Below, piece by piece: positions 7,133 to 61,843 of a DNA stretch of 64,000 nucleotides (position 1 is the stretch's first letter; each line of letters begins with the position of its first letter). A program made the translations under genes and the position numbers. Origin of the DNA: a virus; IMG/VR virus record IMGVR_UViG_3300020165_002937; one strand, given 5' to 3'. A model generated the notes under the pieces. It worked only from the letters and a program-made list of their open reading frames with translations, searched no databases and had not been told where the DNA came from.

Positions 7133-7796
7133 AAATTTATATTTTACGCAAGTACATGAAGATGCAATAGTAAGATACTGTAAGACAACGTGTAACATAG
7201 AAAGAACACAATTGTATGTGGCGTATATTCAGCCAGCGTTTGACCAAATGGTTGACAAAATTGTTTACACATACAAGTTTACCAATTTGCCAAATATCGA
7301 TTATTTGCGCGATGAATGTAAAGTATGGCTAATGACTATACTAGGCAAGTACGACCCGAGTAAAGGCTCGAAAGCATTTTCCTATTTTTCAGTTATAACC
7401 AAAAATTGGTTCATTCATAAAGTTAAAAAACAACAAAAGCGAAATAGAAGAGAAGTCGATCTTCTTAACATTTCCAAAACCTATGAAGAAGAATTCTTAT
7501 CTACAAATGAATCGTATTTGACCGATAGACAAGAGAAAGAATTCTGGGAAAATTTCTATAAGCATTTAGGCGCATGGGACGAATCCCAAATGAAAGAAAA
7601 CGATCTTAAAGTGTATCGAGCCATCAATATCCTGTTTGAATCAAAAGATGAAATAGAGATTTTTAACAAAAAAGCTATTTACCTATACCTGAGAGAGATA
7701 ACAGGCCTGAACACGAAGCAGATTGTAAATTCTTTAAAGAAATTTAGAAAAAAATATTTTATGTTCAAGCAAGATTGGGAAAATGGGGAATTATGA
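7089..7796 (+). CDS. Phage sigma factor, T4 gp55-like (late transcription)
   Basis: KYDPSKGSKAFSYFSVITKNWF resembles sigma region 2 / gp55 (FDPEK..NPFAYFTQI); C-terminal HTH-like LYLREITGLNTKQIVNSL. Confidence 0.7.
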   Translation: MTTTQKPRQRRKKRKNLYFTQVHEDAIVRYCKTTCNIERTQLYVAYIQPAFDQMVDKIVYTYKFTNLPNIDYLRDECKVWLMTILGKYDPSKGSKAFSYFSVITKNWFIHKVKKQQKRNRREVDLLNISKTYEEEFLSTNESYLTDRQEKEFWENFYKHLGAWDESQMKENDLKVYRAINILFESKDEIEIFNKKAIYLYLREITGLNTKQIVNSLKKFRKKYFMFKQDWENGEL

Positions 7797-8089
7797 GCAA
7801 ACGCAGCAACATCGATACTCTTATTAACGAAGCACTAGGGAACATCAGAGATGATCGCAAGTCTGCTCAAGAATTCTTAAATGAAATAGCAAACATTATA
7901 TCTTCGGACACTGACCAGAACAAGTATCTTAGTCCAGTTGCTGCAAAGCATGTTGAAACAATGCAACGCTCAAACGAACAATTAGTAAAGCTAATTTCTT
8001 TGCAACTAAAAGAAAAGAAAGAGACTCTAGAATTGTCAGAAGAGGACAAAAACAGCCTTTTTGACATAATACAGCAGGAGAATAAGTAG
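7793..8089 (+). CDS. Hypothetical helical protein
   Basis: ATG 7793 overlaps the previous stop (ATGA); about 98 aa, coiled-coil-like. Confidence 0.65.
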   Translation: MSKRSNIDTLINEALGNIRDDRKSAQEFLNEIANIISSDTDQNKYLSPVAAKHVETMQRSNEQLVKLISLQLKEKKETLELSEEDKNSLFDIIQQENK

Positions 8090-50055: not shown

Positions 50056-53000
50056 GTGAGGTTTGCACACATAAGTGATACTCATATTAAAAATTTAAAG
50101 TATCATTACGAATATAAGGTCATTTTTGAACAATTATATGATACGTTACGAGAGAAAGAGGTGGATTATATAATCCACTGCGGAGATATAGCACATACCA
50201 AAACACAGATCTCTCCAGAGTTCGTGGAGATGTGCTCTGATTTCTTTCGCAACTTAGCTGAAATCGCACCCACATATATTATTTTGGGCAACCACGACGG
50301 CAATTTAAAAAACAGCAGCCGTCAAGACGCTCTCACTCCTATCGCTGAAGCACTAAACCTACCAGATTTGCACATGCTCAAGGACTCTGGTGAAACACAT
50401 ATCGATGATAAGTTTTGCCTTAACGTACTTTCTGTGTTCGATCGCGACAATTGGATCAAGCCAGTAGACACAAGTAAAATTAATATTGCCTTGTATCACG
50501 GTTCTATTTCCAATTGCAAGACTGATATGAACTGGACCATGACGAATGGAGAAGACAGTCTATCTATTTTTGATGATTTCGACTTTGCGATGCTTGGTGA
50601 CATCCACCGACGCCAGTTCCTGGACGAGCACGGCCGTGTATGGTACGCAGGCTCAACAGTTCAGCAGAATCACGGAGAAACAAACGATAAAGGAATTTTA
50701 ATATGGGACATCGAAGACAAAGATGAATGGGAAATTGATCCGATTGTATTTGAAAATCCAAAGCCTTTTATTACGATTGAGCTTACACAGAAAGGAAGAA
50801 TGCCAAAGAATATTTCTATTCCGACTGGTGCTCGTCTTCGTCTCGTTAGCAATAACAATTTGCCGTTAGACACCATGAAGCGCGCTGTCGATATAGCAAA
50901 GCACCGGTTTGTACCTGAGAGTATTTCGTTTTTAAATCGTGCTGCAGGCCAAAGGGGCTCTGTCGAGGCACTGACCGAAGGGTTGAAAGTAGATAATTTA
51001 AGAGACATAGGCATTCAAGAAGAGTTGATTGATGAGTATCTTGTAGGATATGAAATACAACATGAAACCTTAGAAAAGGTCTATGATTTAAATAAGAAAT
51101 ATAACAAACTTGTCGAGAATGACGAAGACATTTCAAGAAATGTCAATTGGAAATTGAAGAATTTTGAGTTTGATAACTTATTTAACTATGGAGAAAAGAA
51201 CAATGTTAACTTTGGTGAACTTGGGGGGATTGTCGGGATCTTTGGTAAAAACTTTTCTGGGAAGAGTAGCATTGTTGACGGCGTGTTGTGGACTCTTTTT
51301 AATTCAACCTCAAAAAATGAACGCAAGAATCTCAATGTTATTAACCAGAACCAAGGGTACGCCCGCGGCAAAGTAGAAATTCAGATTGGTGAAAGAGTTT
51401 TTACAGTTGAAAGAAGGGCAGACAAGTATATCAAGAGGCTGAAGGGTGAAGAGACCCTGGAAGCAAAGACCGATTTAAATTTTGAAGTATATGATATGGT
51501 TTCGGATGAAATAATTTCTCTGAATGGCCTGACCCGGATGCAAACTGACGCCAATATTCGTAAGCAGTTTGGCTCGATTGAAGACTTTTCGGTATCCTCT
51601 CTGTCCTCACAACATGGGGCTCTGTCGTTTATCGATGAAGGCTCAACCCGTAGAAAAGAAATAATTGCCAAATTCTTAGACCTTGAATTGTTCGAAAAGA
51701 AATTTAAATTAGCCAAAGAAGATTCGGTGGATCTCAAGGGCGCCCTCAAGAGGCTAGAAGAAAAAAACTATGACGATGACCTAGTAACAGCTACAGAGAA
51801 TCTATCTGACGTCCGCTCAAACATGCGCGCCAAAAAGCGCACATGCGATAAACTAAAAAGTAATTTAGCGTCTCTTGAGATGGACTGTATCGAAACAGAA
51901 GCAAAGATCGATTCAATCCCGGCTGAAATTATTGACATCTCTAAGATTAATAAAAACATTAGGACTCAAGAGAACCAGATCACATCCTTAAATCTGAAGA
52001 TATTTGAAGATGAAGAGACGTTAAAGACAAAGCAAGGTTTGTATAAAAAAATAGTTGATTTTCTGGATGGCTTTGAGCTTGATGAATTTGAGTTGGCAAG
52101 TCAGAGAATCGCTGATAAAAGAAGGTTCTTGAAGACAAACGAAGCTGAACTAAACAAATTGTTAGACAAGCACAATGAAATAATTAAAAAAGAAAAGCTG
52201 TTGGAAGATCATGAATATGATCCAAATTGTAACTATTGTTGTGAAAATGAGTTCGTCAAAGAAGCGCATTCTGCAGTCGCCCTAAAGAGCGCAGTTGAAT
52301 CAGACCAGAGGATTGCCCTGGAAATGATAAGCTTAATTTCACAGGAAATAAATGAACTTAACCCTGAAGAAGTGGAAACACAATTAAGCAAATATTATAA
52401 AGTAGAAAAGAATAAACATGCTGTCTCCTCTGCGATTGCCGACTTGAACTTGGAGGTTGAAAGAAACAAGAACATGATTCACGTTACAACTACAGAGTTA
52501 GCCGAGTTGGTAGCAAAACGAAACGAATATGAAGAAAACAAAGAAGCAATAGAAAACTTAGAATCTCTGATAGCTCAGCTGAACAAGTTTAATGTTGAAA
52601 TTAAACAAACCAAGAATAAAATTAATTCATGTGAGCAATCGGTACTAGAGTTTGTTAAGTTGGTAGGTTCATACGAACAAAAAATTGAGGGGGTTAATGA
52701 ACAAAAGCAAGAATATAGAGATCTCCAGAGAGAATATGCTGCCTACGATCTATATATGCGAGCTATGCATCCGAACGGAATTGCTTATGATATTATCAAA
52801 AAGAAAATACCGGTTATTAATCAAGAAATAGCGAAGGTATTGGCTAATGTTGTAGATTTTGAAGTTTTCTTTGAAGCTACTGGAAATAAATTTGATATTT
52901 TTATTAAGCATCCTCGGTACGATGAGAGGCCAATAGAAATGGCTTCGGGTGCAGAAAAATCATTAGCAGCTATTGCTATCCGTCTAGCACTTTTAGGTGT

Positions 53001-53214
53001 CTCATCTCTGCCAACCAGCGATATTTTCATACTTGACGAACCTGGCACTGCGCTAGACGAAGATAATATGTCGGGTTTTATTCAGATTTTGGAACTAATT
53101 AAGGTATATTTCAAGAACGTTTTGTTGATCTCTCACCTTGATTCACTCAAAGATTGTGTTGATATGCAAATCGTAATCGAAAAGAAAGACGGATACGCAA
53201 GAGTAAATCAATAG
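50056..53214 (+). CDS. Fused Mre11/SbcD nuclease - Rad50/SbcC ATPase (T4 gp47-gp46-like)
   Basis: HISDTH, HCGDIAH, GNHD, LGDIH metallophosphoesterase motifs; Walker A GKNFSGKSS; coiled coil with CNYC hook; ASGAE signature; FILDEP Walker B; ISH. Confidence 0.92.
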   Translation: MRFAHISDTHIKNLKYHYEYKVIFEQLYDTLREKEVDYIIHCGDIAHTKTQISPEFVEMCSDFFRNLAEIAPTYIILGNHDGNLKNSSRQDALTPIAEALNLPDLHMLKDSGETHIDDKFCLNVLSVFDRDNWIKPVDTSKINIALYHGSISNCKTDMNWTMTNGEDSLSIFDDFDFAMLGDIHRRQFLDEHGRVWYAGSTVQQNHGETNDKGILIWDIEDKDEWEIDPIVFENPKPFITIELTQKGRMPKNISIPTGARLRLVSNNNLPLDTMKRAVDIAKHRFVPESISFLNRAAGQRGSVEALTEGLKVDNLRDIGIQEELIDEYLVGYEIQHETLEKVYDLNKKYNKLVENDEDISRNVNWKLKNFEFDNLFNYGEKNNVNFGELGGIVGIFGKNFSGKSSIVDGVLWTLFNSTSKNERKNLNVINQNQGYARGKVEIQIGERVFTVERRADKYIKRLKGEETLEAKTDLNFEVYDMVSDEIISLNGLTRMQTDANIRKQFGSIEDFSVSSLSSQHGALSFIDEGSTRRKEIIAKFLDLELFEKKFKLAKEDSVDLKGALKRLEEKNYDDDLVTATENLSDVRSNMRAKKRTCDKLKSNLASLEMDCIETEAKIDSIPAEIIDISKINKNIRTQENQITSLNLKIFEDEETLKTKQGLYKKIVDFLDGFELDEFELASQRIADKRRFLKTNEAELNKLLDKHNEIIKKEKLLEDHEYDPNCNYCCENEFVKEAHSAVALKSAVESDQRIALEMISLISQEINELNPEEVETQLSKYYKVEKNKHAVSSAIADLNLEVERNKNMIHVTTTELAELVAKRNEYEENKEAIENLESLIAQLNKFNVEIKQTKNKINSCEQSVLEFVKLVGSYEQKIEGVNEQKQEYRDLQREYAAYDLYMRAMHPNGIAYDIIKKKIPVINQEIAKVLANVVDFEVFFEATGNKFDIFIKHPRYDERPIEMASGAEKSLAAIAIRLALLGVSSLPTSDIFILDEPGTALDEDNMSGFIQILELIKVYFKNVLLISHLDSLKDCVDMQIVIEKKDGYARVNQ

Positions 53215-53225
53215 GAGAAGCTGCT

Positions 53226-54620
53226 GTGAAAATCAAAAAGTTAGAACTTACGGAGATTATTAAAGAAGAAATCAATAAATTTATCACTGAAGATGATTTT
53301 GATGATTACATGCAGTCGATCACGACAACGTCTAAGGCCGCCCAACGCACCCAAGGCGCCGCAAACAAAGCAACTGCACCTATGAGGGCAACTCGCCAAT
53401 TCCTAATTAACGAATGTGGAAATCAAAAGATACTCCGCGCTATGTTCGGACACGAGAATGAGCGAGATATTGATTTTAATCTTGCTGAAAAAGATTGGCC
53501 AGAATATGGACCTGTATCGGAACAGGCTGAAGATTTTTATTTCGCTGTCAGTAATCTCGTTACCGACTGGGTTGGTGATGACGAGTATGATGGTCGCTAC
53601 AATCCCAATACCACATTTCAATATTTAGCTCCAACGCGCGCAAGGTCGTCTTATGGTTCAATGATTGTGAACTCGGACGGTAACGGCCCACTGCTTGTCA
53701 AATGTAAGCTTACAATAGACAAATACATCGGACTAAACCCGGATTCTGGACTCAAGCCGCTTGAAGAAAGACAGCCAAATTTATATACAGAAGGAATTGC
53801 TAAAATGAAGATTAGAAGGTCACAACTTGAAGATATTATCAAAGAAGAAGTATCAGCCATGGTAGAGGAGTTTGGAGACGACTCACCCTTCCGAATGCGC
53901 GACATGGTGCCACCAAAGGTTCGTGGAAAATTTAAAGATACATTTACCAAGATACCCCACCCCGGACGCGCGCACTTGATGGGTAAAGAAAGAAGACCTA
54001 ACGCTCAAGAAAAAGCTGCATGGAAAGCAGCCGGTGGCTATCTTAGTGTATTCGATAAGCCGGCGATAGCTCAATTTCTTGAAGACGCAGGACTGTATGA
54101 CCCCGAATTCGGGACCAGCTCTCTCGAAAAATATATGGATAATGTAAAATACGCTATCAAGGGTGATCGCTTGGGCCGCCAAATTAACTCTCTCGTCGAT
54201 GCACTGGCGTTGGCTAATAAGACAGGCTCTCGACGCGGCCACTTAAAAACCGCCAAGAAAAAATCCAATAAGCCGCCACAATTTACAAGAGAGTCGATTG
54301 AACGAATCACCAAAGAAGAGCTTTCGAGTGTGCTCCATGAGCGCTCTAAAAGTTTCACATATAAAGTTATCGAAGATGAATTTGATGGCGGACCAAAGGT
54401 AGAAGTCGAGGGAATTGATAAAACTTTTGAGCAAATGATAGAGGAATTAGAAGGCAAAACCTTAGACTTTGGTGACGAACCACCCTTTAAATTTAGTATC
54501 GATTTGTTTGATGGTGAGCCATGGAAGATGATCGTCAACGGCCAGGCACCGGCATATATTGAAATGTGGGCAGAAATGAACGGATTCGAAGCAGAGGAAA
54601 CCGGAAAGGCATATTACTAA
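53226..54620 (+). CDS. Hypothetical multi-module protein with three leader-like motifs; putative internal head protein
   Basis: MKIKKLELTEIIKEE (start), MKIRRSQLEDIIKEE (53805), FTRESIERITKEE (about 54282). Confidence 0.6.
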   Translation: MKIKKLELTEIIKEEINKFITEDDFDDYMQSITTTSKAAQRTQGAANKATAPMRATRQFLINECGNQKILRAMFGHENERDIDFNLAEKDWPEYGPVSEQAEDFYFAVSNLVTDWVGDDEYDGRYNPNTTFQYLAPTRARSSYGSMIVNSDGNGPLLVKCKLTIDKYIGLNPDSGLKPLEERQPNLYTEGIAKMKIRRSQLEDIIKEEVSAMVEEFGDDSPFRMRDMVPPKVRGKFKDTFTKIPHPGRAHLMGKERRPNAQEKAAWKAAGGYLSVFDKPAIAQFLEDAGLYDPEFGTSSLEKYMDNVKYAIKGDRLGRQINSLVDALALANKTGSRRGHLKTAKKKSNKPPQFTRESIERITKEELSSVLHERSKSFTYKVIEDEFDGGPKVEVEGIDKTFEQMIEELEGKTLDFGDEPPFKFSIDLFDGEPWKMIVNGQAPAYIEMWAEMNGFEAEETGKAYY

Positions 54621-54621
54621 A

Positions 54622-55260
54622 ATGAAACTGTTAATAGAAAATTGGAACAAGTTTTTGAACGAGAAACAAAATGCCGCATCGATGGTAGCTTCCGCTTTTC
54701 AGAATACAGATCCGAAATATCTAGAAGACACTCTGTCGACCCGCACAGCCGGCCCCGGCGCCGCTGGTAGCACTTTTTCCGGTCCAACTTCTATCCAAGA
54801 TTTAATACAAGCCGGTTGGCAACCACACCCTCATCCGGCAATAAACACATCTATTGGAGCCATTGGGTTTAAGGCCGCAATTCCCGGTGTGTTAGGAATC
54901 GCTGATATTGACGAAGCACCAGACGAAGTTGTGTTTCAACCAGCACACGGTGGCAAAGCAATGACTAAAGAGCCAAATCCGCAAACTGGTGAACCAGAAG
55001 TTTTGGCAGAGGTTGTTGCAGATATTCCTGCTGCGGCCCGTGAAGTCAGGCACACAACTTTAATCATTGGGCCATCTAGAGAAGATAAAGAAAAACTGCA
55101 AGTTTGGACTTTTCACCCCGGTGATCCAACGCCGCAACTTCCCGAAATAACAATGCGAGAAGTTAAAGAAAGATACAACACTACCGAAGATCGCATTCGT
55201 GGCAGTAAACAAGATGCTGTTGATATGGGATACGGCTTTGTAAAGCACGGTAAAATTTAA
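54622..55260 (+). CDS. Hypothetical protein with MKLLIENWNKFLNE leader
   Basis: Leader shared with 56411..56848; body contains VWTFHPGDP. Confidence 0.65.
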   Translation: MKLLIENWNKFLNEKQNAASMVASAFQNTDPKYLEDTLSTRTAGPGAAGSTFSGPTSIQDLIQAGWQPHPHPAINTSIGAIGFKAAIPGVLGIADIDEAPDEVVFQPAHGGKAMTKEPNPQTGEPEVLAEVVADIPAAAREVRHTTLIIGPSREDKEKLQVWTFHPGDPTPQLPEITMREVKERYNTTEDRIRGSKQDAVDMGYGFVKHGKI

Positions 55261-55271
55261 GGAAACTAACA

Positions 55272-56414
55272 ATGTCAGACGAAAAAGAAGATAAAAACGA
55301 ATTTGATTTTCTGCCTCCCGCAGAACCACCTCCCGCGTTTGCGCAGGAAAAAGACAGTTACCACGAAGAAGTAGATGCAGAAGATTTCGGTATGGTTGAA
55401 GACTTCGGATTACAGATGGAATACTCTGATGAAGATTTACTCCCCGAGAATACAGCACCCTCATCTATCAATGTTGGTTTTGTCGGTGTCGGCGGTGGAG
55501 GCAATAAAATGGCTAATGCTTTTATTGAGCTTGGCTTCAACAAAACATTGCTTGTCAATACAACAGGCAAAGACATTCCAAAGAATGTCGAAGAGGACCA
55601 CGTTGTCCTTATCCCCGATTCTGATGGAATCGGCAAGAACACTGAATATGGAAAAGAGGTTTTAAGTCAAAATGGCGCGATTGTTGAAGATGCCCTGCGT
55701 ATCAAACTCGGTAAAGTTGATTGGTTATTCGTCCTTGCTGGCGGCGGCGGCGGTACCGGTAGTAGTGTTACCGCTCTGCATCCTGTCTTTGAGCGTTACA
55801 TGCGCTCTGTGCAATCGAGTGGCAAGGTCGTTTACATAGTCTCTTGGCCAACAGCACAAGAAAATCTTAACCCCACAATCGCTCGTAATGCGTTGACGCT
55901 GGCAAATGACGTCACCAAGTATCCGCATATCATTTTAGACAATGAACGAGCCACACGATTACTGCGCGGCCGCATTGGCATGCTTGGCATGTACCCAGTC
56001 GCCAACACAACTTTTGCTAAGTCACTTGCCCAAGTGTTAAAGCTCTCCACCGAGGATTCACCGATTCAATCTTTTGACAGCAAGGATTTGGAAACATGTT
56101 TGGGCAATGACGGTCGTGCCTTCTTAGGCTCAACTATGATAAAGGATCCAAATACTGCTAAGCTTGGATCGGTGATTCTCCATAACTGTATGAATAGGTC
56201 AGCGTGCCCCCCACCGAAAGGTAAGGCCGCGGCAGGTTCATTGGTTTTGGTAGTCTCGGAAGAGATGGTGGCTGACCCTAAAGTCAGTAAGAATATTGAG
56301 TCGGCAATCGCTTATGTCGGCGGTCGATGCGAGACACTTTTCTCTGGCGTTTACGTCCGAAAGAATGTGCCTGGATTGATTGCGATACTAAGTATGAATG
56401 GATTAGCGACATGA
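55272..56414 (+). CDS. Tubulin/FtsZ-family GTPase (phage tubulin) with acidic N-terminal extension
   Basis: VGVGGGGNKMA (T1), LLVNTT, DGIGKN, AGGGGGTGSS tubulin signature, LDNE, FDSKDL T7-like loop. Confidence 0.9.
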   Translation: MSDEKEDKNEFDFLPPAEPPPAFAQEKDSYHEEVDAEDFGMVEDFGLQMEYSDEDLLPENTAPSSINVGFVGVGGGGNKMANAFIELGFNKTLLVNTTGKDIPKNVEEDHVVLIPDSDGIGKNTEYGKEVLSQNGAIVEDALRIKLGKVDWLFVLAGGGGGTGSSVTALHPVFERYMRSVQSSGKVVYIVSWPTAQENLNPTIARNALTLANDVTKYPHIILDNERATRLLRGRIGMLGMYPVANTTFAKSLAQVLKLSTEDSPIQSFDSKDLETCLGNDGRAFLGSTMIKDPNTAKLGSVILHNCMNRSACPPPKGKAAAGSLVLVVSEEMVADPKVSKNIESAIAYVGGRCETLFSGVYVRKNVPGLIAILSMNGLAT

Positions 56415-56848
56415 AACAACTATTTGAAAATTGGAACAGGTATTTGAAAGAAGATGAGCAGCAATCGCTAGCGATTGACATGTCTCCTGCGCGCTCGCCT
56501 GAAGAAGTAGCGGAATTAAAATTTAATACATTCCTTGAAAAACACGGCGATGAACTTAAGCAAGAATTTGAAGATTCAATCGATGGACCTGAAGCTTCAG
56601 GAACATTCGGCTATATGGAAGAAATTTTCGATGATTATTTTCTTCGATCCGCCGGCGATTATCACAAAGATGAGGCGTATAGAAAACTGATTCAAGTCAT
56701 TGATCATGAAATCAACGACTTTTACAGTTATATGGAAAAAGGACGAACCACTTTTGACAAGGGTTTGAAATTTTTATTTATGAGAGTATTAGAAGCGCAT
56801 GATGAATTGAACTGGGACAAAACAAATAAAATACCAACAGAAAACTAA
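56411..56848 (+). CDS. Cassette 1: hypothetical acidic protein with MKQLFENWNRYLKE leader
   Basis: ATG 56411 overlaps the tubulin stop (ATGA); its stop TAA is part of repeat copy 2. Confidence 0.75.
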   Translation: MKQLFENWNRYLKEDEQQSLAIDMSPARSPEEVAELKFNTFLEKHGDELKQEFEDSIDGPEASGTFGYMEEIFDDYFLRSAGDYHKDEAYRKLIQVIDHEINDFYSYMEKGRTTFDKGLKFLFMRVLEAHDELNWDKTNKIPTEN

Positions 56849-56877
56849 GTATGAATGGATTAGCAACATAGGAGATT

Positions 56878-57120
56878 ATGATGAAAATTACAAAACAACA
56901 GCTTAAACAAATTATCAAAGAAGAATTAGCCGAGGTAGGTCAATATGGATTAGGGGTGCCGGGAGGTTCCACAAGTTCCGTAGCAGATCCACACACCGCC
57001 GCAATAGAAGCTCTTGCAGATTACATACGCAACAGACTACCGTACAGAGAAGATCAAAAGCTTTTAGAACTTTTACAAACTGCTGAAGAAGCGGTTATTG
57101 ACTTTGAGAACGAACTATAA
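56878..57120 (+). CDS. Cassette 2: small protein with MKITKQQLKQIIKEE leader
   Basis: AGGAG RBS; stop TAA is part of repeat copy 3. Confidence 0.75.
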   Translation: MMKITKQQLKQIIKEELAEVGQYGLGVPGGSTSSVADPHTAAIEALADYIRNRLPYREDQKLLELLQTAEEAVIDFENEL

Positions 57121-57139
57121 GTATGAATGGATTAGCAAC

Positions 57140-57373
57140 ATGAAGATTACAAAACAACAACTTAAACAGATTATTAAGGAAGAGATAGAAGGACTACCGG
57201 AAGCCGGCAGCTTTACGCGCCGATCTACAATCACCAAAATCATCCGCGACGAAATCATCGGTCTTATGGAGGATCAGGGGTTTTTCGAGATGGGGGCGAT
57301 TCCGCAATCCGTTATTAAAGCTGTTGAAAATACCTCCTTACGTATCGCCGACACAGTGGAAGGAATGGATTAA
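57140..57373 (+). CDS. Cassette 3: small protein with MKITKQQLKQIIKEE leader
   Basis: ATG at the end of repeat copy 3. Confidence 0.75.
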   Translation: MKITKQQLKQIIKEEIEGLPEAGSFTRRSTITKIIRDEIIGLMEDQGFFEMGAIPQSVIKAVENTSLRIADTVEGMD

Positions 57374-57377
57374 CAAC

Positions 57378-57791
57378 ATGAAGATTACAAAACAACAACT
57401 TAAGCAGATTATTAAGGAAGAGTTAAAGGATTACACGCGCGGCGAAGCCCGCAGTCCTGAAATTCAGATCCCGGGCTATGGCATTATGACTGTTGAGGGG
57501 GTTAAAAGAAAATTAGCTGTTATGTTACAAGAGGCTGCCGATGATGCAACCAAAGACCCACCAAGCTACTCGCACCTCAATGGCGGCGTCATCCAGGCGC
57601 TCCACCAAGCATTAAGAGATCACTATCAAAATTCCGAAGAATCCCTTGAAGAAAAGATCAAGGAAGTTGAAGGTGGATATAAGGCGACCACTAAGAGCGG
57701 TAGACCATTATCAAAAAAGCCAAAGACAAAGAAAGGCGCTCAAGCCCAACTCGCAGCAGTGGAGATATCAAAAGCCAAGAGAGGTAAGTGA
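57378..57791 (+). CDS. Cassette 4: protein with MKITKQQLKQIIKEE leader and basic C-terminal module
   Basis: ATG at the end of partial repeat copy 4; C-terminus GGYKATTKSGRPLSKKPKTKKGAQAQLAAVEISKAKRGK. Confidence 0.75.
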   Translation: MKITKQQLKQIIKEELKDYTRGEARSPEIQIPGYGIMTVEGVKRKLAVMLQEAADDATKDPPSYSHLNGGVIQALHQALRDHYQNSEESLEEKIKEVEGGYKATTKSGRPLSKKPKTKKGAQAQLAAVEISKAKRGK

Positions 57792-57991
57792 TGGCAGCTG
57801 CAACAAAAGCTTTCGTGGATACATGGTTGGCAAAACTTACTTCCCGCAAGCTGATGGTGTGGCTTACAGCGACCGGCCTAACCTTTACGGGGCATGTTAC
57901 TAGCGAAGACTGGGTGTTAATCTCCGCTATATATATTGGGGGCCAAACTGTTATTGATGGGTTGGCTCGTTTAAAAGGGTACAATGATTAA
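57788..57991 (+). CDS. Putative holin
   Basis: 67 aa, KLTSRKLMVW motif, two hydrophobic segments, charged C-terminus. Confidence 0.6.
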   Translation: MMAAATKAFVDTWLAKLTSRKLMVWLTATGLTFTGHVTSEDWVLISAIYIGGQTVIDGLARLKGYND

Positions 57992-58367
57992 ACAAAAGAT
58001 ACTAGAATTTACTCTGAAGAATTGGAAGGCAATACTAATAGTGTTGCTTTTGGCTGTTATAGCCCTCAAGAATACACGCGATTATAGGCTGATGCAAGAT
58101 GCCTATGAGACCCAACTAGAATCCCATGAAGCACAAATTGAAGGCTTGAAAGAAATACATAAGCAAGAAATTCGTGAAAAACAAAAACTAATGGAAGAAC
58201 ACATGGAGTCAATAGCAGCAATCGAAGAAGATTATGAGAATGCCCTTGAAATGATTCAACAATTGAGAGAGGATAAAAAGGGCGAATATAGAAATAAATT
58301 CAATCAAGATAGAGAGCAGCTAATTAAAGACATAGAAAGCCGATTTGGTATTCAATATGCTCCTTAA
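57984..58367 (+). CDS. Putative inner-membrane spanin-like protein
   Basis: N-terminal TM (AILIVLLLAVIAL) followed by a long coiled coil; directly after the holin-like gene. Confidence 0.5.
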   Translation: MIKQKILEFTLKNWKAILIVLLLAVIALKNTRDYRLMQDAYETQLESHEAQIEGLKEIHKQEIREKQKLMEEHMESIAAIEEDYENALEMIQQLREDKKGEYRNKFNQDREQLIKDIESRFGIQYAP

Positions 58368-58773
58368 ACTGCTTTTAGTGCTTAGTCTTTCAGCGAATGC
58401 AGTTGAGCCGGCCAAGTTTACCATCTTGGAATATAAGGCGCCAGCACCATTCGCAGGAGTTTTGTTCGACGAAAAGGCCATGGCTAAAATGCTGGCAGAT
58501 TATGATATATACAAGTATTCATGCGATATAAAAACTGATTATCAATTAAAGATCCAAAGAGAAGAATATGACTTTAAGTTGAAAAACTTAAAAATAGAAC
58601 ATAAATCCTTAACAGATGAGTATGATTTGTTTATAATGCAGAAGGATAAAGAAATTAATCTTTTATCTAGCGCCTTAAAAAAAACCTCCCCCCGCCACAA
58701 ATGGTTGTATTTTGCTGGTGGAATCCTCATTGGCACTGCCGCCTCGTATGGCGCTTATAAGACTCTACAATGA
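58357..58773 (+). CDS. Exported coiled-coil protein with C-terminal TM (spanin-partner candidate)
   Basis: Signal peptide MLLKLLLVLSLSANA, APFAGVLF, coiled coil, C-terminal WLYFAGGILIGTAASYGAY. Confidence 0.5.
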   Translation: MLLKLLLVLSLSANAVEPAKFTILEYKAPAPFAGVLFDEKAMAKMLADYDIYKYSCDIKTDYQLKIQREEYDFKLKNLKIEHKSLTDEYDLFIMQKDKEINLLSSALKKTSPRHKWLYFAGGILIGTAASYGAYKTLQ

Positions 58774-59162
58774 CCAACAAAAATTTAAATAAAATAGCAG
58801 CTATAGAAAAAGCCATCAGCGAAAAGTATGGAGATGAAGCAATTCAAAATCCTCACACAAATTGGTCAGAGGAAAAAGAGAAAATGTATTTAGAACAGCT
58901 AGGTGTGTTTTATAGTAAAAGTCGCAAGTCCGATGCTTGGGAAGAAAAAATAGACATTGATGGCGTTAAAGTGTCAAAAAAACTACTTAGTAGAGAATCT
59001 TTAGCAAATTGTCCTGTCTGCGGAAATCTTCCTAAGAAATCACTGGATGATGTGTGTCTTGTAAAATTTGAATGTTGCAGTTATTGTTACTACAAATATG
59101 TTGAAGACAGAGAAAAAAGATGGTCAACCGGTTGGCGCCCCGAAATTAAAAAGGATAAATAA
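58770..59162 (+). CDS. Hypothetical zinc-finger protein
   Basis: CPVC...CCSYC. Confidence 0.65.
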   Translation: MTNKNLNKIAAIEKAISEKYGDEAIQNPHTNWSEEKEKMYLEQLGVFYSKSRKSDAWEEKIDIDGVKVSKKLLSRESLANCPVCGNLPKKSLDDVCLVKFECCSYCYYKYVEDREKRWSTGWRPEIKKDK

Positions 59163-59166
59163 AAAA

Positions 59167-59712
59167 ATGGCTACAGTATATGAAATTATTCAAGGTCTCT
59201 CGCAAGCAGCAGCAAATGCTTATGACGGAGCTTTAAACGAAGAAGGTGAGTCTGTGTTAGCCGGCTTGAACCGGGAGGATGGAAATCCCCTTATTGATCG
59301 CCGGGTAATAGATGGATTTAATGTCAGGTTTTTCGGAAACAAAATGATTCTGGCATATCATTCGGAGACCAAATTAAAAGAAGTCTACAGGGGCGGCTTT
59401 GAAGATAATATTGACAGTACGTTAAACGATGTAGCCTCTTTTTTAAAGAAAGAATATAAAAAGATTACTAAAAATGGTGTCTCACTGAAGCAGGAAGGTG
59501 AGACCGATATTCGTGTGGAAGCCACCAGCCGAGTAAGAACTTGGGTGACAGCCGTTCGCACTTATATCATTGAGGATGTGAGTACCGAAACAACAGTTCC
59601 TCAATATTCCTCTGATTCTTTGCAAGATGGATACAAAAAGTTTCTTGAACTTGGCGACTGGAAGGGTAAGCGCCCCGACAACGATACGCGAACTAAGAAC
59701 GGCGATCAATAA
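59167..59712 (+). CDS. Hypothetical protein
   Basis: Start placed at ATG 59167 (MATVYEIIQGLSQAAANAYDG), just after the previous stop. Confidence 0.65.
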   Translation: MATVYEIIQGLSQAAANAYDGALNEEGESVLAGLNREDGNPLIDRRVIDGFNVRFFGNKMILAYHSETKLKEVYRGGFEDNIDSTLNDVASFLKKEYKKITKNGVSLKQEGETDIRVEATSRVRTWVTAVRTYIIEDVSTETTVPQYSSDSLQDGYKKFLELGDWKGKRPDNDTRTKNGDQ

Positions 59713-59714
59713 TA

Positions 59715-60263
59715 ATGAAAATTTCTAAGCAAGAATTGAGACGCATTGTCTTAGAAGAGTTTATGTTAGAAGAGGGTATCGAGACAGAGGCCCTTTCTCC
59801 CGAAAAATTTGATCAGATGATGAAGAATATCAAAAGTAATCGTAAAGGTAGTAGGCCAATTCCGCCTCCACCAGAAGTACCCCGACCAAAAGGAAAAGGT
59901 CTCCCCCACGAAGATACAATGCCTATGGATATCCCAGCAGACGATGCCCCAGAAAGTGAATATTCCGGCTTCCAAGATCGCCCGGGCGCACATCTAGAAG
60001 ATCAGATATTCTCCCTAATAAAAGGTATGTCACCGGAGGACGTCCAGGGGTTATTCCAGGATGTGTTTGAAATGTTGCCTGGGATTGAAATGCAGCAACA
60101 AGAGCCCGACGCAAAACCTTCTACGGAATATGGCGGCGAAGAATTTGAACTCCGTCAACGACAAGGTAGAATTGCCGGTATCAGAGAGGTACTTGAACTT
60201 GGTGACCTGATGGCCCTTATTCGCGAAGTGATCAAAGAGGAAGATAACCTTAAAAATGTATGA
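59715..60263 (+). CDS. Hypothetical protein with MKISKQELRRIVLEE leader
   Basis: Same leader family as the cassette genes; C-terminal LIREVIKEE. Confidence 0.65.
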   Translation: MKISKQELRRIVLEEFMLEEGIETEALSPEKFDQMMKNIKSNRKGSRPIPPPPEVPRPKGKGLPHEDTMPMDIPADDAPESEYSGFQDRPGAHLEDQIFSLIKGMSPEDVQGLFQDVFEMLPGIEMQQQEPDAKPSTEYGGEEFELRQRQGRIAGIREVLELGDLMALIREVIKEEDNLKNV

Positions 60264-61843
60264 GCTTTCAACTAGACAAAAAACAAAAGGTCAAAGAAAT
60301 ATTAAAATGCGGTAAAGACCCATCTTATTTTTTGAAGACATACGCCCGTATATCCCACCCGATGCACGGGTTAATTCTTTTCGACACATATGAGTTTCAA
60401 GATGACCTATTGAAAGACTTCAATGATTACCGGTTCAATGTTATCCTTAAGGCAAGGCAGCTAGGGATTTCAACGATTACGGCCGGGTATGTTGTTTGGA
60501 TGATGTTATTCCATCGGGATAAAGCCATCTTAGTTATGGCCACAAAGTTTGCAACAGCAGGAAACTTAGTTAAAAAAGTCAAGAACATCATGAGAAACCT
60601 TCCTGACTGGCTTAAGATTGCGACCATTAGTGTCGACAACCGGACTTCTTTTGAGCTGTCGAATGGATCTTCGATAAAAGCCACTTCCACCTCTGGCGAT
60701 GCCGGCCGTTCTGAGGCTCTGTCGTTGTTGGTGCTTGATGAGGCCGCCCACATTGATGGTCTAGAAGAACTGTGGACCGGCCTGTATCCTACGCTATCTA
60801 CCGGTGGCCGCTGCATTGCCCTTTCAACTCCAAATGGGGTAGGTAACTGGTTTCACAAGACGTGCACCGACGCCGATGCATCCGCGAATAATTTTAATTT
60901 AACTACGTTACCTTGGGATGTGCACCCAGATAGAGATGAAGAGTGGTACAAGAAAGAAACCAGAAATATGTCGAAACGGCAAATTGCTCAAGAGTTACAG
61001 TGCAATTTCAATACTTCTGGTGAGACTGTTGTAGATCCCGAGTGTCTGGAGTGGTTATTTTCTGGTGTAAAAGAGCCCAAGTATCGAACCGGATTCGATA
61101 GAAATTTCTGGATCTGGGAAGAGTATGACCCGACATGCAATTATTTGTTAGTTGCCGATGTTGCCCGCGGCGATGGTGCTGATTACTCCACATTTCATGT
61201 TATAAAATTAGAAACCTTAGAAGCGGTGGCCGAATATCAGGGCAAGCCAGCCCTGGATATGTATGCGACAATACTTAATCAAGCCGGCCACGAGTTTGGC
61301 AACGCGTTGTTAGTCGTAGAAAACAACAATATTGGGTATTCGGTCTTAAATAAACTAATAGAGTTGGCATATCCTAATTTGTATTACTCCATAAAAACTT
61401 CTCATGAATTTGTAGAGCAACATCAAGCAGAATATCTTTCAAATTCGGTTCCAGGATTCACTACATCTATGAAGACGCGCCCATTAATAGTTGCCAAGTT
61501 GGAAGAGTTTATCAGAAATAAACTAATTACCATATATTCTTCTCGTTTAACTAACGAGATGAAGACCTTTATTTGGAAAAACGGAAAACCACAGGCTATG
61601 AAAGGCTACCATGATGATCTCATCATGGCGCTAGCAATCGCTTGTTGGGTGAGAGATACCGCAATACAAAACAGCGCCCGTGAGTTAAATTATAAAATGG
61701 CATATGCAAATTCAATTGTTACCTCTAAAACTTCCTTTAATACACAAATTAAAGGTCAAGAGGGCTACAAAAAAGATAATATATTTGATAAAATATCGGA
61801 AGCTAAGAATATGTATGACCAATACAAGTGGATTATTAAATAA
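60260..61843 (+). CDS. terL: Terminase large subunit (T4 gp17-like)
   Basis: LKARQLGIST Walker A, LLVLDEAAHI Walker B, LSTPNG, ADVARGDGADYS nuclease motif, VVENN, HDDLIMALAI. Confidence 0.95.
   Translation: MSFQLDKKQKVKEILKCGKDPSYFLKTYARISHPMHGLILFDTYEFQDDLLKDFNDYRFNVILKARQLGISTITAGYVVWMMLFHRDKAILVMATKFATAGNLVKKVKNIMRNLPDWLKIATISVDNRTSFELSNGSSIKATSTSGDAGRSEALSLLVLDEAAHIDGLEELWTGLYPTLSTGGRCIALSTPNGVGNWFHKTCTDADASANNFNLTTLPWDVHPDRDEEWYKKETRNMSKRQIAQELQCNFNTSGETVVDPECLEWLFSGVKEPKYRTGFDRNFWIWEEYDPTCNYLLVADVARGDGADYSTFHVIKLETLEAVAEYQGKPALDMYATILNQAGHEFGNALLVVENNNIGYSVLNKLIELAYPNLYYSIKTSHEFVEQHQAEYLSNSVPGFTTSMKTRPLIVAKLEEFIRNKLITIYSSRLTNEMKTFIWKNGKPQAMKGYHDDLIMALAIACWVRDTAIQNSARELNYKMAYANSIVTSKTSFNTQIKGQEGYKKDNIFDKISEAKNMYDQYKWIIK

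Follow-up and report, generated by a model that had tools for sequence, protein, structure and literature searches.

The viral DNA analysed here, IMG/VR record IMGVR_UViG_3300020165_002937 (64,000 nucleotides (nt), hereafter the window), holds a row of four small plus-strand genes between a gene for a tubulin/FtsZ-family GTPase and a holin-like gene, and the 3′ tail of the tubulin gene recurs at the junctions of the row. We call the repeated tail, about 24–28 nt long, J, and the small genes cassettes. The 24-mer TAAGTATGAATGGATTAGCAACAT matches the tubulin 3′ end at 56389 with one mismatch and recurs exactly at 56846 and 57118, with no matches in 100 shuffled sequences; its 17-nt core, GAATGGATTARCRACAT, matches additionally at 57363. 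All four copies in the window lie within the tubulin–holin locus, each at a gene junction, as an initial annotation of this DNA had reported.

The stops and starts which that annotation read from the repeats are borne out. J copy 1 (56389–56413, plus strand, like the other copies) is the original coding end of the tubulin gene, and its ATG at 56411 overlaps the tubulin TGA stop and starts cassette 1. Copy 2 (56846–56874) closes cassette 1 with its TAA, which ends at 56848, and has ATA in place of the ATG; it then carries its own AGGAG (56870–56874) ahead of ATGs at 56878 and 56881. Copy 3 (57118–57142) supplies both the TAA stop of cassette 2, ending at 57120, and the ATG of cassette 3 at 57140. 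Copy 4 (57363–57380), a partial copy with the sequence GAATGGATTAACAACATG, encodes the end of cassette 3 (..GMD*), and its ATG at 57378 starts cassette 4. J contains TAA (or TAG, in GATTAG) in one frame and a terminal TGA, TAG or TAA in a second, while the third frame reads through into the downstream start.

For comparison we used the best 80 of 149 IMG/VR contigs with a tubulin match (protein identity 86–98%), which include complete genomes of about 190 kb; individual loci are given by L numbers. Cassette 1 (56411–56848) encodes a 145-amino-acid (aa) ORFan that opens with a leader we call B, MKQLFENWNRYLKE, and has a body without counterpart in the 80 related loci. Leader A, MKITKQQLKQIIKEE, opens the other three: cassette 2 (56881–57120, alternative start 56878), a 79-aa ORFan within a J–cargo–J unit shared with L049 and L024; cassette 3 (57140–57373), a 77-aa ORFan whose cargo has homologues elsewhere in the array of L002, L014, L046 and L064; and cassette 4 (57378–57791), a 137-aa protein. 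The last 55 or so residues of cassette 4 (57620–57791) form a module that is also seen alone, in relatives, as a separate small gene, MPYKRxGKCVYKK..., beside the holin-like gene. This type of module is also found fused C-terminally to proteins with differing leaders. The cargo-specific junction at J copy 4 recurs in L002, and a related AAATGGATTAG form is present in L046 and L064.

Similarity runs on from J through the 15-codon leader (63 nt at 95% identity for 57125–57187 against 57363–57425) and then ends sharply, in agreement with the initial description. Beyond the leader, the cargo bodies of cassettes 1–4 have no detectable mutual similarity (pairwise BLASTP E ≥ 0.13), and so are not full-length paralogues. 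No function was found for these four cargos in Pfam, PHROGs, a PDB sequence search, a large protein database and ESM Atlas, cassette 1 in particular having no Pfam or PHROG match and no function from ESM Atlas; among ten larger cargos from relatives, family and database scans likewise gave no function, with the exception of an endonuclease in L074.

The left anchor, the tubulin gene (55272–56414, plus strand), encodes 380 aa ending ...AILSMNGLAT*. Its product matches Pfam PF00091 with 35.3 bits (cut-off 33), and FtsZ proteins are its best solved relatives in a PDB sequence search (E = 2e-11). By sequence the GTPase is nearer FtsZ than TubZ, and it has an acidic N-terminal extension of about 65 residues. 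At least 80 contigs from a marine lineage of T4-like myoviruses conserve it at 86–98%. A literature search found no description of a tubulin/FtsZ-like gene in T4-like phages, and we know of none. The right anchor consists of a small holin-like membrane protein gene (57788–57991) and a spanin-like gene (57984–58367), both on the plus strand and both found by tblastn in 79 of the 80 loci; we infer their lysis function, the only family evidence being a weak Rz-like PHROG match. The large terminase and portal are encoded just downstream of the array. No cultured relative was found among 50,697 phage records (megablast of 10 kb, tblastn of the tubulin), and the phage is an uncultured marine T4-like myovirus. 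Whole-genome questions were answered in complete relatives of 187–196 kb in place of the window's own genome.

A variable interval between conserved anchors

Flanks were placed in each locus by tblastn, and gene counts rest on simple open reading frame (ORF) calling and single-linkage clustering. The flanks (tubulin, holin-like gene, spanin-like gene and the next gene) are conserved, and the interval between them is an accordion-like hypervariable region, as the initial annotation had proposed: cassette number, content and order differ widely among relatives. From tubulin stop to holin start it measures 12–5179 nt and holds from none to about ten small genes (79 IMG/VR loci). Across 80 loci, 295 genes were called in about 103 cargo clusters, an approximate count since the shared C-terminal module merged 99 proteins into one cluster. 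The relatives do not repeat the same four genes in the same order; 69 gene orders occur in the 80 loci. The most variable part adjoins the tubulin gene. The right end is semi-conserved, with a gene of leader type D or G followed by one with the MPYKRxGKCVYKK module. Either this module's gene or a D-type gene (MNWLKxLW...) is usually the last before the holin-like gene.

One difference between the window and its relatives can be followed to its edges. The unit formed by J copy 2, cassette 2 and J copy 3 is 94% identical to its counterpart in L049 and 90% identical to that in L024, and in both it lies directly behind the tubulin gene, so that cassette 1 and one J make up the difference and the indel is bounded by J. 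In L049, the unit that adjoins the tubulin end is that of J copy 2, comprising the ATA form of J, the Shine–Dalgarno sequence and the cargo.

Identical gene orders also recur in independent contigs (for example L043 and L073, L009 and L063, L046 and L064), which means that the variation cannot be dismissed as misassembly, although some orders may still be chimeric. The window's own order is found in L091 and L097, two independent assemblies that are 100% identical to it over 56299–58100, and is therefore not a one-off assembly artefact. We consider it very improbable that the array arose from one small gene that was simply duplicated in tandem and then diverged, or that it is an artefact of assembly. 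Cassettes 2–4 do share J and leader at 95%, all are small, and contigs often break here; however, their cargo bodies are not detectably similar, the same cargos occur singly or reordered in relatives, the window order is reproduced without a mismatch in independent samples, and 103 cargo clusters are beyond what misassembly would produce.

Distribution and origin of the junction repeat

Most loci have J at the tubulin end, and within the arrays it recurs at 56 separate junctions, equivalent to 52 of the 216 non-first gene starts; 76% of non-first genes lack it. An unbiased k-mer count returned J-derived 16-mers as the commonest within-locus repeats, ahead of leader sequences. In five complete relatives (187–196 kb) all 12 copies of J lie in the tubulin–holin locus and none elsewhere, so the genome-wide scan proposed at the outset finds the repeat confined to this place. 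Two forms occur both at tubulin ends and internally: one ends in ...ACATG, its ATG being the next start and, at the tubulin end, overlapping the TGA stop; the other ends in ...ACATA and is followed by GGAG or AAGGA, with an ATG 11–15 nt further on. Six leader types (A, B, C, D, E and G) are preceded by J, indicating that J and leader are independent modules.

The internal copies are, as judged from their sequences, duplicated tubulin tails. Even the most distant relatives, in which no J is recognisable downstream, retain the C-terminus AIL(S/G)MNGL, indicating that J is ancestral tubulin coding sequence from which the internal copies derive. These share the two main synonymous polymorphisms of the tubulin tail, AGT/AGC and GCA/GCG, and where they have changed, third positions of tubulin codons are preferred. 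On the left they end raggedly, mostly reaching 0–12 nt past the core and usually just far enough to include the TAA that stops the upstream gene, and rare copies hold 14, 21 or 36 further nucleotides of tubulin tail; this raggedness argues for repeated, independent seeding events. In L074 the tubulin gene's own tail is recoded and divergent while the internal copy is canonical, so that this copy must have come in from elsewhere together with the cassettes behind it. The most conserved part of J is AATGGATTAGCAAC and the least conserved position the T of TAAGTA, kept in 38 of the 56 copies; conservation declines steadily leftwards. Concerted evolution within genomes was considered and set aside, the association being weak and confined to one polymorphic site.

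J might alternatively be a selected regulatory element that has been copied to junctions, acting as a late or other phage promoter, as a module for starting or restarting translation, or as the operator of a translational repressor; in one variant a mini-ORF, ATG-AAT-GGA-TTA-GCA-ACA-stop, would pass ribosomes to the next start. We regard this as unlikely. It would fit the fact that every J closes with a start codon or, failing that, with ATA and a Shine–Dalgarno sequence 11–15 nt before an ATG, that TAAGTA stands 22 nt before the ATG, and that internal copies are far better conserved than the adjoining cargo. It would also fit the RNA, which is unstructured, as in good start regions: the four J contexts of the window fold no better than shuffles (z −1.15 to +1.6). 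Its promoter version was part of the initial annotation, which took TAAGTA for a promoter element in a fixed promoter-plus-leader module, an idea for which we find no support. A consensus scan of 53000–60500 found no sigma-70-like promoter at the J copies and an overall count below shuffled expectation, and no terminator-like site was found at the junctions. TAAGTA (12 copies on the plus strand) and TATTTA (46 copies) are ordinary in the AT-rich DNA here, and counts of TATTTA, TAAGTA and TATAAATA gave no promoter signal. TAAGTA moreover contains the most variable position of J, and the ATG of the mini-ORF is not specially kept. A class of promoters or operators would not be expected at one locus alone, where J lies in the five complete genomes, and the repeat is separable from the leader: leaders of six types follow it, three-quarters of the non-first array genes do without it, and the plastic interval upstream of the tubulin gene has leader genes with almost no J. 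As to a translational repressor, no RegA-family gene (PF01818) was matched in three complete relatives, a weak negative, since the search had no positive control.

A one-directional array with a short conserved boundary sequence beside a fixed anchor also recalls an integron, with J as the attachment site of a dedicated recombinase acting on circular cassettes. This explanation is largely refuted, and we give it almost no weight. The recombinase for which the initial annotation had suggested a scan did not appear: tyrosine (PF00589) and serine (PF00239) recombinases are absent from five complete relatives, in searches whose positive controls responded. J itself has no inverted repeat or hairpin, its left boundary is ragged, and most junctions lack it. 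A RecA/UvsX-family gene is present in all five complete relatives.

Leaders of the cassette proteins

Cargo genes draw on a limited set of N-terminal leaders: A, MKITKQQLKQIIKEE, in 103 genes; B, MK(K/Q)LFENWRKHLNE, in 42; C, MA(I/R)RKNxKRxDPRYFxxE, in 29; and D, MNWLKxLWxKLV, in 27, with smaller numbers for E, F, G and H. Leaders A (15–16 aa), B (14 aa) and C (18 aa) stand on many cargo clusters with unrelated bodies. Each is conserved over its 14–18 residues, after which conservation stops, and they end in I-x-E-E, [LIV]-x-E and [ML]-x-E, respectively, with x variable. Leader A has I12 in 85 of 89 sequences, a variable position 13, E14 in 82 of 89 and E15 in 87 of 89; leader B has [LIVT]12-x-E14 in 34 of 37, and leader C [ML]16-x-E18 in 19 of 19.

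As a sequence pattern, these endings agree with a prohead-protease site (cleavage after Glu, hydrophobic P3). The internal proteins of T4 carry capsid-targeting propeptides of 10–19 residues that are removed by gp21 (PMC9026906, PMC5694885), and are diverse apart from this targeting tag (PMC9026906, PMC5694885, PMC3012670); cleavage after Glu holds for T4 gp21 as for every giant-phage head protease studied (PMC9026906, PMC5694885). The window ends before the head protease gene, and the evidence for a protease comes from a complete relative, G002, in whose genome a head maturation protease of T4 type (phrog_207, E = 2.7e-54) is accompanied by a gp23-like major head protein (phrog_138). In G002, genes with strict leader A, B or C cluster, with one exception, within about 10 kb around the tubulin gene.

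Leaders A, B and C have, at the level of sequence, every feature expected of T4 targeting tags. A role in capsid targeting and packaging is plausible, given that these leaders end in hydrophobic-x-Glu and that relatives encode a T4-type head protease; most likely they are T4-type capsid-targeting propeptides that would be cut after hydrophobic-x-Glu by the T4-like head protease. A point on the other side is that the listed N-termini of leader types D to H show no Glu-ended motif. The head module of G002 (L081, L090) also contains leader-B-like motifs in ORFs near the protease gene, after the portal: a 395-aa protein with ..MDAWRKFLTE.., a 61-aa ORF with ..IMDNWDAFLEE.. and a 136-aa protein starting MKKNDLKHLIKP...LLEE. 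This resemblance hints that the leaders may be akin to motifs of prohead core proteins.

If the leaders are propeptides, the locus would be a changeable repertoire of packaged or injected proteins. Its cargos would then form a list of candidates for injection, perhaps serving in counter-defence or takeover, that bear at least three tags able to replace one another. The leaders might then perhaps be usable as packaging tags.

Proposed cassette exchange and comparable systems

We think it likely that general recombination and illegitimate recombination together shuffle this hyperplastic cassette locus, J and the leaders providing portable homology for it. Small ORFans would be gained, lost, reordered and replaced through the phage's general recombination between co-infecting relatives, with no dedicated cassette recombinase involved and with conserved flanks, leaders and J serving as homology for exchange. 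A new J would arise when a tubulin tail and the cassette or cassettes downstream of it are joined behind a resident cassette, by illegitimate or microhomology recombination or by duplication. J alone, or J with a 42–54-nt leader (about 65 nt of near-identity in the window), would then be portable, and unequal crossover between such copies could delete, duplicate, swap or reorder cassettes. J would also give a newcomer a working gene boundary, with stops in two frames for the upstream gene and an unstructured start region that offers either its own ATG or ATA plus a Shine–Dalgarno sequence. The route of recombination is what we infer; the repeats, their tubulin origin, their restriction to the locus and its plasticity are what the comparison itself displays.

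Plasticity is not confined to the array. The interval from the nuclease-like gene (1052 aa, 50056–53214) to the tubulin start, 53215–55271 in the window, spans 2–2060 nt in 63 loci and contains 0–3 genes, mostly with leader A or B and with almost no J. In two loci the 3′ tail of the nuclease-like gene (..AGAGTAAATCAATAGGAG) is itself duplicated (L004, positions 42 and 892; L047, positions 5483 and 5974), and in L047 the second copy is fused, immediately ahead of the tubulin start, to a left-hand portion of J. The tubulin gene is thus not the only anchor whose tail has been duplicated, which suggests a general process. The window's own upstream interval contains a 464-aa ORF (53226–54620) with a GTG start and a leader-A-like N-terminus, KIKKLELTEIIKEE. 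Further on in the same frame, at 53805, it has another leader A, MKIRRSQLEDIIKEE, so it may represent two cassettes fused in frame or a polyprotein-like arrangement.

Several observations weigh against the recombination scheme. The near absence of J from the hypervariable upstream interval implies that plasticity does not depend on J, which may largely be a scar. Nucleotide identity is 82% for internal copies of J against 60% for the cargo that follows, which could mean that J has a function of its own rather than serving as passive homology, although this contrast does not separate constraint from repeated re-seeding or from cargos being older alleles. Within genomes, J variants match one another weakly (p = 0.015 at one polymorphic site, no association at the other). 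Recombination is read from the comparison of assemblies, no event having been seen directly; most loci are short-read metagenome contigs, in which repeats of about 65 nt can give chimeric gene orders, and all ten fetched contigs with cassette 4 (L091–L100) end inside the array or the tubulin tail, so that no alternative junctions among near-identical strains could be read from them. Their ends correspond to window positions 56299, 56925, 56932, 57130, 57132, about 57148, 57200, 57206 and 57225. Short-read assemblies break at the array because of the J and leader repeats or of strain variation, and viral metagenomes consequently sample its genes too thinly and at times join them wrongly.

A stronger form of the proposal, which we hold to be doubtful, makes J and the leaders a landing pad in actual use. 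Cassettes bounded by J would leave as small circles, or pass from one co-infecting phage to another, and be re-inserted at any J by a UvsX-type reaction, an 'integron without an integrase' that would build a rapidly changing, packaged, injected and probably anti-defence or takeover protein set with several leaders.

Homing could also move sequence at this site. A homing endonuclease at the tubulin 3′ end might be the main driver, with break repair from co-infecting genomes duplicating the tail and bringing in cassettes. L074 offers the best case: an endonuclease VII/HNH-like gene (L074 positions 7136–7860; phrog_1035, E = 1.5e-20) adjoins the tubulin gene, whose tail is recoded to ..AIVTMTGLSDG*, and a canonical remnant, CATTGATTGCGATACTAAGTATGAATGG..., lies downstream. 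By its likeness to the T4 seg and mob genes, we take this arrangement to be the classic footprint of a free-standing homing endonuclease. A Cys-rich 214-aa ORF also lies in the upstream interval of L061 and L074. An endonuclease gene was nevertheless identified at the site in that one locus only, with ten cargo proteins scanned, and none was found among ten window genes scanned from 53226 to 60263; homing would, moreover, leave unexplained the up to five further internal J copies per array and the shuffling of distant cassettes. We therefore rate it a contributor and think it improbable as the main cause.

The shuffling of cassettes by recombination as proposed here has a precedent in the PeSL-mediated modular shuffling of hyperplastic regions in T4-type phages (Arbiol et al. 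2010, PMC2839356; Comeau et al. 2014, PMC4122927). Both systems place ORFans in a hyperplastic region between conserved genes of T4-like phages, and in both a short conserved junction sequence is the point of homologous exchange at which cassettes are inserted, deleted and replaced with no dedicated recombinase, the repeat supplying the start region of the downstream gene. Exchange points at the repeat among ORFans that vary in presence and absence are seen here too, in the J-bounded indel between the window and L049 or L024. The elements themselves differ. PeSLs are non-coding, about 100 bp long, and combine a strong early promoter of sigma-70 type with a stem-loop terminator; they are scattered over several hyperplastic regions, whereas J is about 25–28 nt long, copies a coding 3′ end, has neither promoter nor stem-loop, and is restricted to one locus, where homology extends into coding leaders. 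J thus lacks the defining features both of PeSLs and of the attachment sites of integrons, yet in its behaviour the locus resembles modular shuffling by PeSLs; a conserved gene's 3′ end and short coding leaders can fill the role that promoter–terminator cassettes (PeSLs) have in coliphages.

The internal-protein (ip) locus of T4 was named in the initial annotation as the known analogue, and is a fair one. In the polymorphic ip loci of T-even phages, with their capsid-targeting sequence (Mullaney & Black 1996; reviewed in PMC9026906 and PMC3012670), as in the array (here by sequence), unrelated small proteins share only an N-terminal leader of 10–19 residues ending at a Glu site, content varies between close relatives, and a T4-type prohead protease is encoded. 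For the array proteins, packaging, cleavage and injection are putative. Unlike the ip loci, the arrays here combine several leader classes, at least three of them ending in hydrophobic-x-Glu, and are far larger, with up to about ten genes and 103 cargo clusters. To our knowledge, a duplicated 3′ tail of the anchor gene has not been described for T4 ip loci.

Duplicated gene ends are reportedly a feature of the arrays of orphan toxin/immunity cassettes downstream of rhs and cdiA that Poole et al. in 2011 and Koskiniemi et al. in 2014 are said to have described. There, too, displaced cassettes are each preceded by a 3′-end fragment of the conserved upstream gene, which gives homology for a recombination that exchanges the active cassette. 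Those arrays are bacterial, and their fragment is in frame and fuses a new toxin tip to the main gene; the tubulin gene, unlike rhs and cdiA, is not remodelled, and its J copies lie between independent genes. Genomic accordions, too, form by recombination between short homologies, as at poxvirus K3L and, reportedly, in the T4 amplification of Srikant et al. in 2022. Their copy number expands and contracts through short-repeat recombination under host pressure, a likeness to the present locus, but accordions amplify one gene and this locus accumulates different genes.

The locus offers a population-scale view of ORFan turnover in an abundant uncultured marine T4-like lineage. T4-type phages are already known to have hyperplastic regions, exchange at repeated junctions, and internal proteins that share a tag; what is new is the re-use of the coding 3′ end of a conserved tubulin/FtsZ-like gene as a junction between cassettes, the coexistence of several alternative leaders in one array, and the sheer extent to which an abundant marine lineage varies here.

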